A stretch of 64,000 bases of DNA, taken from the sequence record OQ626344; one strand, given 5' to 3'. Each line of letters begins with the position of its first letter. The stretch's first letter is position 1. This document shows positions 11,103-13,661 of the stretch, piece after piece. The notes under the pieces are model-generated. The model saw nothing but the letters and a program-made list of their open reading frames with translations, had not been told where the DNA came from and did not search any database. Source of the stretch: Escherichia phage S127 BCL3. A program made the translations under genes and the position numbers.

Positions 11103-11242
11103 CACACAAGCCTGCTTTGCAGGTTTAGCTGCTCAGCTAAGGTTCTGGCGGCACCTATAACATCTTCCAACTAAATTTCCTACCAACACAGTTACTTACC
11201 CACCACACATGACTGTTTGCTTGTTTAGTGAGCAGTCATCCC

Positions 11243-11270
11243 TTGACATTCTTGCCTATCTTGATAAAAT
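11243..11270 (+). promoter_or_regulatory. sigma70-type promoter with no ORF downstream
   Basis: TTGACA-16-TAAAAT. Confidence 0.6.
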
Positions 11271-11277
11271 TAAGTTC

Positions 11278-11545
11278 TTCTCTTTTCTTTTACCGAGTAA
11301 TTCGGGTTTTCTGTTCTCTTCGGTTTGAAGGGGTATGGAGATACACCTGAGTGAACAGGGTGAACAACCGAACCTTTAGCTATGGCATTAGCATGGCGAA
11401 GCGGACGGGTGACGAAAGAGGGGCCGGAGGACACCAGTCACTGCCATATAGTATATGGGTGATAACCTGAAGAGTCTGAATAAGTGTTTAAGTACCAGTC
11501 AGAGGAAAAGGTGAATGGTAGCCGAAGGGGGAGGGGGGTTTCTTA
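11278..11545 (+). ncRNA. candidate non-coding transcript (purine-rich, nested helices); ends not defined
   Basis: Starts downstream of the 11243 promoter; no SD or ORF. Pairings TATGGCA (11381-87) / TGCCATA (11442-48) and GTGAC (11409-13) / GTCAC (11437-41); GAAA/GAAG loops. Confidence 0.3.
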
Positions 11546-12128
11546 TATCTTTAATTTGTATACTTTATATACACTTGTAAACCAATTCAATTAGGATCTG
11601 TTTACCACACAAAGTGGATGGAGACAAATATCACCTATTAAACTTGAATTATTTATAGAAAATACCACAACACCACTTAAGTATTTGATTTTACACACAA
11701 ATCTTACAAATATCCTACCTCCATATTTAACATACTTGTAACATATCCCATATCCTACCTGCCTGGTCAATTTACTCCCACCACATCCCCACATTTTCCC
11801 TGTCTGTACTACCCCACCCCCGCCGGGAGTCCCGTCATATCTGGCTTCCCAGCAAATATCACACCCACAAATATCATCACCTGAAGAGGGTTTCATCCCA
11901 TAATACACACCTTGCCTGAAGAGCGCTTCATACACCACCTAAATTTTTTAATTGACCCCTCCCCGCCGCCGGAGAGGTTGGCTTTTCCCACACAGGCCTG
12001 AAGAGTCAGCCAGAAATATCTGAACAGGTCCAGTTATACCCCGATTTTGTGCTTGTCCTACAGGAGTGCTGCCCTGTCAGGAGCCGGTAGCGACTGGAGT
12101 GCTGCCAGGCGGACGGAATGGGAATACT

Positions 12129-12270
12129 TCTCATTTTTATAATAATTCTCAAATATCGAGGCAGTGAGGCAAATTAATAGGCCAGGCCGTTCACACAGTG
12201 GCACAACATTTGCAATCTATCTTGTGGGAGTGAATGAGAATACCTATCATTGTGAGAATGGTTATCATTA
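12129..12270. promoter_or_regulatory. cluster of Fur-box-like sites (GAGAAYNNTTATCATT)
   Basis: Tandem GAGAATACCTATCATT (12236-12251) and GAGAATGGTTATCATT (12254-12269), plus a degenerate inverted copy at 12129-12150. The reverse complement of 12254-12270 matches 15/19 of GATAATGATAATCATTATC. Confidence 0.45.
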
Positions 12271-12541
12271 CGGGCAATTTAACATAATACCCATTATGCG
12301 CACCACTGGCGATACATACAGGGATTGATAACATGGGTTACTGTTTACGCATATAACAATTATATTTCTTACTATTTGTGTGGGATATAGTTAGCAACCA
12401 ATAGATTAGATATTGACCTGCGGACTTCTGACCGTCCAGACGTCTAAACGCCCACACAGCAAGGATTATACATACATTTCTGAATGTAAACAAGGCCGCA
12501 AAAATGCTACCATACCAGTTTGTAAATTTTTCATGCAGCAC

Positions 12542-12625
12542 TTGACAAAGAGGAGAAAAACTTGTCTGACACAATGTGACAAAATTACCACTTTTGACAC
12601 TTTTACCTTTGACGCAATATGACAC
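12542..12625 (+). repeat. cluster of six TGAC(A/G)(C/A) hexamers
   Basis: Copies at 12542 (within TTGACA), 12567, 12577, 12595, 12610 and 12620. Confidence 0.7.
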
Positions 12626-12706
12626 AATAACGGCTGTTACTATTCCATATCTCACTGTTTACGCATAGGCTGTTTACGCCTGAACAGTTTACACAGAGAT
12701 GATAAG

Positions 12707-12999
12707 CCATGCCATTCGTTTGCATGAAAACAATTAACAAGCTAACAATTAACAAGTTAATAATCTTTCGCTGGCTATGCCAGGTGACTAGGTCACCCCT
12801 TCGGGCGTTTCTATGACATAATATAAAAGCAGGGCAACTATTAGAAGATCTATAGTTGCCTTGCTTGTTATGTCATGATTAACTAAATACAAGGCAACTA
12901 TGATCTGAGTAATAGATTGCAGAAAAACTATCACGGGGGTGATGGTTACTGCTTTTATATTATGTCGCGACTCCGTCGCGCCATGCCATTCGTTTGCAT
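12707..12999 (+). repeat. 19-bp perfect direct repeat CCATGCCATTCGTTTGCAT flanking a palindrome-rich segment
   Basis: Copies at 12707-12725 and 12981-12999. Confidence 0.85.
12815..12966. repeat. 18-bp perfect inverted repeat GACATAATATAAAAGCAG / CTGCTTTTATATTATGTC
   Basis: Arms at 12815-12832 and 12949-12966. Confidence 0.85.
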
Positions 13000-13006
13000 A
13001 GTTGCC
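12833..13006. repeat. GGCAACTAT 9-mer, four copies in alternating orientation
   Basis: Copies at 12833-12841 (+), 12852-12860 (-), 12893-12901 (+) and 12998-13006 (-). Confidence 0.8.
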
Positions 13007-13056
13007 TTATTGTTACAGGTAAAACAATTACATTATTAATTATTTCTTATCTTTCT

Positions 13057-13117
13057 CTTAGTCATCTAATGATTCCAGTCAGTATAGTAATGTACAGTAA
13101 ACATTAGACGACTAAAG
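13057..13117. repeat. imperfect 15-bp inverted repeat
   Basis: CTTAGTCATCTAATG (13057-13071) against CATTAGACGACTAAAG (13102-13117): one mismatch and one indel. Confidence 0.7.
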
Positions 13118-13172
13118 ATTTCTCTGTTTATGATAACTCATCGTGATAATTTCGGACTGTTTACGAAAAATG

Positions 13173-13201
13173 TTGACACCTGAGCTGATTTATGTTATGC
13201 A
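13173..13201 (+). promoter_or_regulatory. sigma70-type promoter inside the non-coding island
   Basis: TTGACA-17-TATGCA. It points toward the 3' end of the leftward operon, with no convincing ORF downstream. Confidence 0.5.
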
Positions 13202-13610
13202 GTTTACACGAATAATTATTTTATGCAGGTATTGACTATTCCGTTATTCTGTGGTTGGAATAAATACTTTGCAGACTATAGAATGGCGTTCGTACGTGAA
13301 TTCTGAGATCTGTCGGCTATAGTTATACTCGATTTTTCGCGTAGAACACGCTTTCGATGCTGTGTAAGTGTATGACTTATAAAGATTTTTAGTTGTTGAC
13401 AAGATATTGGAGATATGCATCAGGTTAAAATTTGTGCAATAGCTGCATTACGTGCACTTTTGGGAGAGAAAACGGGTAAAAATGGACTTGCTACCACACA
13501 ATGAAAAATTATGCAATAGTTATTTTCCATGTATATTTGTACAGTATGTGGGATTGATAGCTAGTCAATTATTCCACTTGCCAGGTAGGGCCGTTTATGG
13601 TAGGAGAAGA

Positions 13611-13643
13611 GCAGACAAAAAGAAAGGGGCCTTTAAGCCCCTT
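13611..13643 (-). terminator. rho-independent terminator ending leftward transcription
   Basis: On the minus strand: AAGGGGC-ttaaag-GCCCCTT followed by TCTTTTTGT. Confidence 0.75.
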
Positions 13644-13661
13644 GATAATTCAGTTAAGAAA

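Follow-up and report, generated by a model that had tools for sequence, protein, structure and literature searches.

The gene-free island of an rV5-like Escherichia phage is very probably the assembly-merged terminal region of a linear chromosome with short direct repeats

Introduction

In a stretch of 64,000 nucleotides from Escherichia phage S127 BCL3 (sequence record OQ626344; hereafter the window), two gene blocks converge on an island at positions 11103-13661 that holds no credible open reading frame (ORF), and this raises the question of what such a region does for the phage. A first-pass annotation made from the letters alone had noticed many repeats in the island and preferred to see a replication origin in its iterons, AT-rich DNA and palindromes; as alternatives, it named a packaging (pac) site and a place at which the physical ends of the chromosome had been joined in the assembly. 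The window comes from an rV5-like E. coli myovirus of the genus Vequintavirus. The 2013 genome paper on rV5 draws the island as a "non-coding" box (rV5 positions 104013-106618); its authors had expected bidirectional terminators there, found none and proposed no function, and they observed that the shift in GC/AT skew at this place coincides with the switch in transcription direction. Here, we propose that this Vequintavirus chromosome is linear and non-permuted and has short direct terminal repeats (DTRs) of the T7 style, that the island is its terminal region, and that the two ends were merged in the assembly via the repeat. We give this reading a probability of about 0.87.

Results

The record of phage HdK5 begins and ends with the same sequence (positions 1-459 and 138870-139328 are 100% identical), and this repeat maps to positions 12108-12566 of the window. 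A search with this block revealed that it sits exactly at the record ends of ECP2303, ECP2309, Gotham, HdK5, EdH4, Pr121LW and YN3, and the record of bov11CS3 begins at its first base; altogether, no fewer than eight independent GenBank records have their first or last base exactly at a position equivalent to 12108 or 12566. Moreover, the Gotham record annotates the block as a repeat_region at both ends. A terminal redundancy of 458 bp has been reported for EdH4 and HdK5, and repeats of 459 bp with one specific packaging start for all virions have been reported for Gotham. Two hallmarks of T7-type termini are thus seen in the relatives: The ends are fixed and non-permuted in their records, and in HdK5 and Gotham the two virion ends carry the same sequence. 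The window itself holds one copy of the DTR, which is 95-99% identical to the DTRs of the relatives and has identical edges. From the repeat of HdK5, the shared record ends and the single copy in the window, we conclude that the assembly has merged two virion ends, just as one of the alternatives in the first-pass annotation had it. Three parts make up the island: the right-end arm (11103-12107), a single collapsed DTR of 459 bp (12108-12566) and the left-end arm (12567-13661). The right-end arm is non-coding: it extends from the last rightward gene to the invariant left edge of the DTR and has no conserved ORF. Two other records should be mentioned here. In Shigella phage CM1 (MK962749.1) and Escherichia phage I29 (ON286975.1), the island is about 500 bp longer than in the window, and two places in CM1 match the DTR; these records have likely kept both copies of the repeat and were then re-opened elsewhere.

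A second genus offers a comparison. For Klebsiella phage KPP-1 (Vequintavirinae, Mydovirus), a DTR of 514 bp was found by twofold coverage and PhageTerm and classed as T7-type; a similar coverage pattern is implied for Gotham, HdK5 and EdH4. In the KPP-1 record, this repeat lies, as in the window, at the convergent junction of two small-gene arrays in an ORF-poor gap of about 1.8 kb, and the edge motifs on both sides are homologous to those of the window. At the left edge, the window reads GTGCTGCCA up to the boundary and GGCGGACGG behind it, and KPP-1 reads GGTGCTA and GACGGACAG; at the right edge, the repeat closes with TTTGTAAATTT-N11-CTTGACAAAGAGGAGAAAAACTTGTC in the window (12519-12566) and with CTTGACAAGGAGAGAGAATTGTGTT in KPP-1. 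The starts and ends of the HdK5 and Gotham records fall exactly on the alignment columns of the KPP-1 edges, and in three KPP-1-like contigs of IMG/VR the pair of edge motifs is spaced by about 514 bp. In an alignment of 19 Vequintavirus sequences over 4.2 kb, from which the pairwise identities given below were also derived, the right-edge motif is nearly invariant. On the left side (12024-12107), a variable module, made up of one or two ACAGGAGYGCTGCC units or of an insert of about 50 nt, is followed by CAGGAGYGCTGCCA and, across the edge, by GGCGGACG, and this context (GCTGCCA before the edge, GGCGGACG behind it) is invariant in the alignment. The distance from the last CCTGAAGAG motif (anchor 11990) to the edge varies between 83 and 134 nt in the relatives. 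We infer that the edge sequences are the cut sites of the terminase. KPP-1 and the window also share copies of AAATATCA around the left edge (three in the KPP-1-like contigs, one of them at +43, and one in the window at +44), a C-rich tract before the DTR and, some 300 bp inward of the left end, a large perfect inverted repeat. In contrast, the DTR of KPP-1 is 514 bp long, the rest of the region cannot be aligned to the window, there is no homologue of the conserved block A described below, and the palindrome of KPP-1 is of unrelated sequence.

The conservation along the alignment is very uneven: Pairwise identity is about 0.83-0.95 in the flanking genes and 0.89-0.96 in the DTR, whereas the sequence just outside the edges is hypervariable and rich in insertions and deletions (0.38 at 12050-12099 and 0.14-0.79 at 12567-12850). 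The edges are thus invariant and have hypervariable arrays on their outer side. Two motifs are arrayed on the plus strand before the left edge. CCTGAAGAG is present seven times in the window (0.6 expected); four copies are found in the island (11466, 11880, 11915 and 11997) and a fifth at 10806, so that the array spans 10806-12005, with all five copies on the same strand. Copies 2-5 are identical in 18-19 of the 19 relatives, and a divergent clade carries one to six copies per locus, or three to six where the whole island is held. AAATATC is present 27 times in the window (11.6 expected), and six plus-strand copies (11626, 11708, 11854, 11869, 12014 and 12151) lie within 530 nt and straddle the left DTR edge (11626-12157). 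The last four of these are invariant in 19/19 relatives, and the motif recurs in the divergent clade; in addition, the tandem-repeat program TRF reports an array with a 15-nt period at 11848-11881. These two arrays are the best candidate sites for the small subunit of the terminase or another end-binding protein. The strand-asymmetric tract reported in the first-pass annotation is borne out by base counts: Positions 11560-12000 of the plus strand are poor in G and rich in C and A (52 G and 133 C among 441 bases, i.e. 12% and 30%), and the tract would be rut-like if transcribed from a promoter at 11243. Such G-poor, C/A-rich transcripts are typical Rho-loading sequences. Analogous C-rich tracts precede the DTR in KPP-1 and in L010, a contig of the divergent type (IMGVR_UViG_3300045988_159287).

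On the other side of the DTR, at the left genome end (12567-12811), every genome has a TGACAYAAT-type array, then a degenerate array of yTGTTyAC units with a period of 13-15 bp (the "iterons") and a AACAATTAACAAG-type array. This segment has a pairwise identity of 0.14-0.79 with insertions of 13-49 nt, and the arrays differ in copy number among close relatives (0-7 and 1-5). TRF detects arrays both here and in the relative MiataMamis. As judged from motif counts against expectation, the repeats listed by the first-pass annotation are real and far above chance. The cluster of TGACAC-type hexamers was recovered as four TGAC[AG]C and two TGACA within 12543-12625, the direct repeat of 19 bp turned out to be a perfect copy pair of 20 bp (12706/12980), and the perfect inverted repeat of 18 bp was found as well (see block B). 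For the nine iterons, the array does exist, but it has only five exact CTGTTTAC and two GTTTACAC copies. T7, too, has short repeat arrays beside its terminal repeat.

The most conserved stretch of the whole alignment is found in the right-end arm (11200-11549, pairwise identity 0.97-0.998). It contains a plus-strand sigma-70 promoter that points to the right genome end (11243-11270; TTGACA-16-TGATAAAAT) and has 11 of 12 matches and the TG motif of an extended -10 region. The -35 and extended -10 regions are identical in 19/19 relatives, and the divergent clade keeps a functional equivalent (TTGCAA...TGCTATAAT). Of the promoters that had been ascribed to the island, this one is strong, but the one at 13173, like other candidates in the left arm, stays below the threshold of our scan. 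The promoter is followed by block A (11277-11545, plus strand), a candidate structured non-coding RNA of about 270 nt that is suggested by conservation and fold and both ends of which are inferred. Close to its 5' end, a hairpin followed by a U-rich tract (11293-11305, plus strand) forms a terminator-like site that may be a leader stem or an attenuator. Pattern scans of IMG/VR and metagenomes identified divergent copies of block A with 67-77% identity in nine contigs; L035 and most of the 34 IMG/VR pattern matches were discarded as chance. The core motifs are invariant in this second lineage, and the 5' hairpin still pairs there with a wholly different stem (CCGAGUAAUUCGG as compared to CCAGAAUACGCUUCUGG). 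In the divergent clade, all small reading frames of block A are lost to stops, frameshifts or missing starts.

The RNAalifold consensus of block A has 40 pairs, 10 of which are changed on both sides, and there is a clean long-range helix (UAUGGCA/UGCCAUA in one lineage, UAUCGCA/UGCGAUG in the other). In the alignment, 99.8% of the cells are paired, as compared to 50-58% if the partners are slid, and the slid controls have one or two double changes instead of 10 and covariation scores of 0.09-0.20 instead of 0.449. About one third of the pairs are G-U; the fold therefore exists only on the plus strand, which is the strand read by the promoter. The covariation comes from two lineages only, so that each covariation counts as about one event, and the structure was derived from the same sequences; moreover, the folding z-score of the single sequence is only -1.5. 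Rfam 15 gave no match over 10500-14500 at E <= 1, and in a permissive scan the best scores were 12.9-21 bits as compared to gathering scores of 45-95. No match to block A was found in E. coli genomes or in 185k species genomes, and the idea that it mimics a host RNA was rejected for want of a counterpart there. Likewise, an nhmmer profile of block A detected no homologue in KPP-1 or L012, and a literature search for Vequintavirus transcriptomics or non-coding RNA returned nothing relevant. A long-range pairing of the G-run at 11528 with CCCCTCCCC at 11956 was also dismissed: the divergent clade alters the G-run to GGGGUAGGGG and keeps CCCCTCCCC. On balance, we lean slightly towards the view that block A is a bona fide novel non-coding RNA, whatever its role, and it is the only part of the island that could be new biology.

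A second conserved element, block B (12812-13015), is a compound palindrome in the left arm. It combines the 18-bp inverted repeat (12815-12832/12949-12966) with four GGCAACTAT sites of alternating orientation (12833 plus, 12852 minus, 12893 plus and 12998 minus), and its alternately oriented units end in AAGGCAACTAT. All four copies of GGCAACTAT in the window lie in the island (0.43 expected). The folding z-scores are -9.6 for the plus-strand RNA, -10.2 for the minus-strand RNA and -10.0 for DNA; since they are alike on both RNA strands and in DNA, we regard block B as a DNA palindrome rather than as a strand-specific RNA. Its pairwise identity is 0.93-0.998, the arms and the four sites are invariant or nearly so in the 19 relatives, and conservation in blocks A and B is higher than in the adjacent genes. 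Block B was not detectable in the divergent clade. In KPP-1, an unrelated perfect inverted repeat of 21 bp with internal hairpins (z = -10.65) occupies the analogous position about 310 bp inside the left DTR; the form and the position of the palindrome are thus kept, but not its sequence. It is possible that block B provides a fold-back or cruciform in repeat duplication or replication, or that it is a set of operators. The adjoining AT-rich segment (12986-13060) agrees with the AT-rich stretch described previously for 12990-13060: 60-nt windows starting at 12986-13037 have an AT content at or above the 99th percentile of the window. The remainder of the left arm (13050-13623) is conserved and non-coding (pairwise identity 0.88-0.98), with no strong sigma-70 promoter in the scan and with ORFs that are broken in the relatives; positions 13293-13661 are kept at 75% in L010. 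The island version of L010 has an ORF of 256 aa (7716-8486), and part of this stretch matches genes for HNH homing endonucleases in Salmonella and Escherichia phages that are unrelated; this looks like the insertion of a homing endonuclease into the terminal region.

The DTR itself contains a tandem Fur-box-like element (GAGAAT-n3-TATCATT, twice; 12230-12272) identified by its match to the consensus. This element is conserved in the relatives, and a near-identical 17-mer is present at 24196. The first-pass annotation had spoken of Fur-box-like sites, but it overstated the case, as the best match in the DTR (at 12254) reaches 15/19 positions and equal or better matches exist elsewhere in the window.

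The island is real. It is matched by 121 phage records, about 100 of which cover at least 80% of its length at 86-97% identity, and the closest record to the window is that of vB_EcoM-ECP32. Its boundaries and the absence of credible genes hold up: The rightward ORF ends at 11102 and the leftward one (139 aa) at 13662, and of the 19 aligned relatives, only 1, 3, 4 and 2 keep the largest ORFs inside (115, 105, 71 and 69 aa) intact, as opposed to 18/19 and 16/19 for the genes on either side. No match was obtained for any of 10 island ORFs in PHROGs or any of seven in Pfam, and a scan for tRNA and tmRNA genes found none. The terminator that had been placed at 13611-13643 is seen as a minus-strand intrinsic terminator of the leftward gene block at 13643-13624, with an 8-pair stem that has five GC pairs and is followed by a T run; the same terminator is annotated in the HdK5, Gotham and Alma records. 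The overall numbers of promoter-like and terminator-like sites in the region are not above the shuffled expectation.

Discussion

If the island is the terminal region, the DNA in the virion would begin with the DTR (12108-12566), continue with the left arm (12567-13661) and the leftward genes, and end, after the rightward genes, in the right arm (11103-12107) and another DTR. During replication, the genome units would be joined head to tail and share a single DTR, and the terminase would cut between 12107 and 12108 and between 12566 and 12567, with a duplication of the repeat in the manner of T7. The same-strand arrays of AAATATC and CCTGAAGAG before the left edge may be recognized by a protein in end recognition or processing, and the short-repeat arrays past the right edge may serve likewise. 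Block B would be a hairpin- or cruciform-forming element for end processing or replication, block A an early transcript made by the host RNA polymerase that reads towards the junction, and the G-poor tract behind it a zone of Rho loading or termination.

Several points speak against this reading. The chromosome ends placed here were taken over from relatives with 95-99% identity in the DTR, the terminase gene lies outside the window, and the roles of the repeat arrays and of blocks A and B are putative. Moreover, the rV5 paper treated such genomes as circularly permuted, and in a recent paper, PhageTerm classed the Vequintavirus BpE1AUH as headful with partial permutation. One might therefore see in the island the pac site of a headful, circularly permuted genome and in the apparent DTR an artefact of assembly, all the more as most GenBank records are permuted arbitrarily. 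However, headful packaging would spread the ends over the genome and leave only the first cut site-specific, whereas both ends are fixed across the records: The ends obtained in independent laboratories are identical to the base, and an overlap artefact would not hit the same 459 bp in eight records. The single packaging start of all Gotham virions and the twofold coverage, T7-type call and homologous edges of KPP-1 point in the same direction. The fixed ends contradict a pac site in the headful sense, and we consider this explanation highly improbable. Even less can be said for the view that the island is decayed coding sequence or a neutral spacer in which repeats have arisen by chance. It could draw on the ORFs of up to 115 aa and on the 12-16 tiny genes that some annotation pipelines call here, but the ORFs are broken in the relatives and match no family, blocks A and B are better conserved than the adjacent genes, and the motifs are far above chance.

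The proposed terminal region might still be, or contain, a replication origin, either of the iteron type or primed by transcription from the 11243 promoter, with a purine- and G-run-rich RNA that forms an R-loop beside AT-rich DNA at about 11532-11690. T4 oriF/oriG, ColE1 RNA II and the promoter-associated origins of T7 are precedents for the latter, and in T7-type phages such origins are located near the ends. The AT-rich segments at about 11532-11688 and 12986-13037 (at or above the 99th percentile of AT), the strong and invariant outward promoter with a purine-rich (65%) transcript that ends in GGGGGAGGGGGG, and the ultra-conserved compound palindrome of block B would fit this idea, and according to the literature, the pac site and the terminal repeat do not suffice for a T7 phagemid, which also requires an ori. 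On the other hand, the iteron-like arrays are the least conserved part of the island: They are degenerate and vary between 0 and 7 copies among relatives that are 86-97% identical, and V18 has none at all. For the DnaA box, there was no match to TTATCCACA with one mismatch or fewer, and TTATNCACA yielded one-mismatch matches only (7 as compared to 3.2 expected); scans for IHF sites and for oriC 13-mers found no meaningful enrichment. No initiator gene is adjacent, as the small genes on either side match nothing in Pfam, and those for the polymerase, primase/helicase and helicase (32.9-43.0 kb) are 20-30 kb away. An AT-rich unwinding element is present, but this is not a specific feature. The island resembles no plasmid replicon; the comparison with plasmids returned only a misfiled phage genome and two chance matches of 40-50 nt. 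The skew shift coincides with the change in transcription direction and is therefore explained by transcription, and the case for an origin is no weaker for another ORF-free region, at about 23990-24950. With variable iterons, no good DnaA boxes and no adjacent initiator, the origin preferred by the first-pass annotation is unsupported, and we regard an origin of either type as unlikely.

The conserved blocks could instead serve mainly early regulation and host takeover. Block A would then be a trans-acting RNA such as a decoy, a sponge or an anti-defence RNA, the GGCAACTAT and Fur-like sites would be operators, and their place at the ends would simply reflect the lack of genes there. The promoter is of the sigma-70 consensus type, and expression would therefore be immediate-early and depend on the host polymerase. 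The strand-specific, compensated structure without a conserved ORF, the Fur-like 17-mer shared with the intergenic region at 24196 and the absence of block A from KPP-1 in spite of its similar termini are in favour of this possibility. The searched literature offers no expression data, though, the structure is backed by only two lineages and a weak single-sequence z-score, and the outward orientation and junction-side position are kept in both lineages. We therefore hold the regulatory explanation to be possible, if doubtful, and better placed than the origin. A bolder proposal is that block A represents a new class of phage RNA that acts on DNA ends, either as an R-loop primer or as a cofactor of terminase loading. 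By analogy to known systems, an immediate-early, structured and ultra-conserved transcript of about 270 nt, whose gene lies at a distance of about 560 nt from the DTR edge and points to the genome end, would serve as the primer of a terminal origin or couple transcription to the loading of the terminase at the concatemer junction. It would be the myovirus counterpart of phiOR-dependent packaging in T7 or of the packaging RNA of phi29. We consider this proposal quite improbable, more so than an origin.

As a terminal region with DTRs, the island is of a known kind that has already been published for sister phages. The non-coding box of rV5 and the repeats of HdK5, EdH4 and Gotham represent the same locus (86-97% identical; 95-99% over the DTR, with identical edges). 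In the papers on rV5, HdK5/EdH4 and Gotham, we found no text that links the non-coding box to the terminal region, nor any description of blocks A and B or of the motif arrays. In T7 and T3, the non-coding left end holds the terminal repeat and promoters for the host polymerase, the recognition sequences lie within 5% of the termini, and a pause of RNA polymerase at the concatemer junction starts packaging; a promoter near the right end of T7 reads into this junction. The window resembles these phages in its short and exact DTR, its gene-free flanks, the putative recognition sequences near the termini and a promoter close to the right end that is directed at the junction. It differs from them as it belongs to a 137-kb myovirus without sequence similarity, and its outward promoter is of the sigma-70 rather than of the phage-polymerase type. 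Since the genes on both sides are transcribed towards the ends, there is, unlike in T7 and T3, no early operon at the left end. The terminal repeats of T7 and T3 are 160-230 bp long, as compared to the 459 bp found here. The packaging RNA (pRNA) of phi29 is a structured RNA encoded beside the genome end and transcribed outwards from an early host-type promoter. Block A would share the position next to the end, the structure and the outward transcription, but this is a functional analogy only: no Rfam family, pRNA included, matches block A, and this phage has no terminal-protein replication.

These results matter in practice, as most of the about 120 public Vequintavirus records have been opened arbitrarily, and the 2.5 kb were left blank or were given 12-16 spurious tiny genes. 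The exact cut positions and the edge motifs shared across genera set the correct orientation of the genome and make the termini predictable from sequence alone. The rV5-like phages are widely used against pathogenic E. coli, and a vector for packaging or transduction would have to carry the junction fragment. No protein gene nearby is as conserved as block A, which belongs to no described family. If it is expressed, it would be a new phage RNA with a position that suggests a role in the biology of the ends.

Several minor observations concern the island, its neighbours and its records. GATC is scarce in the island, with four sites as compared to about 13 expected from the density of one per about 200 bp in the window. 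The 139-aa gene next to the terminator (13662-14081, minus strand) is absent from HdK5, Gotham and Alma, in which the next gene directly follows the terminator, and it is found at 90-91% identity in divergent contigs with otherwise non-alignable flanks; its pattern of occurrence is that of a mobile accessory gene at the genome end. A search for related loci with this gene gave only three. Among the records that carry the island, 19 of the MG0656xx series (e.g. MG065655.1) are named "Campylobacter phage" with C. jejuni as the host, at 88-92% identity, which is probably due to mislabelling or contamination of the data set. The E. coli "plasmid" CP057073.1 in PLSDB aligns to 99% of the island (89% identity) and, with 137,565 bp, is as long as a Vequintavirus genome; most likely, it is phage DNA that was filed as a plasmid. 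The second ORF-free and repeat-dense region of the window (23990-24950) lies inside the leftward gene block. Its plus strand has two sigma-70-like promoters, and behind each of them come a GC hairpin and a Fur-box-like site. Of all sequences in the window, the site at 24196 (GAGAACGGTTATCATTATC) matches Fur best, and it hardly differs from the element at 12254 in the DTR. This region also contains direct repeats of about 30 nt (GAAAACGAAAAACAGATCGAGTACT), a high AT content, a local flip of the GC/AT skew and two copies of AAATATC. Finally, two adjacent genes of the HNH-endonuclease family (349 and 493 aa; 50893-53436, plus strand) are located on the strand opposite to the surrounding replication genes, and the first of them has a weak match to a "decoy of host sigma70" family.

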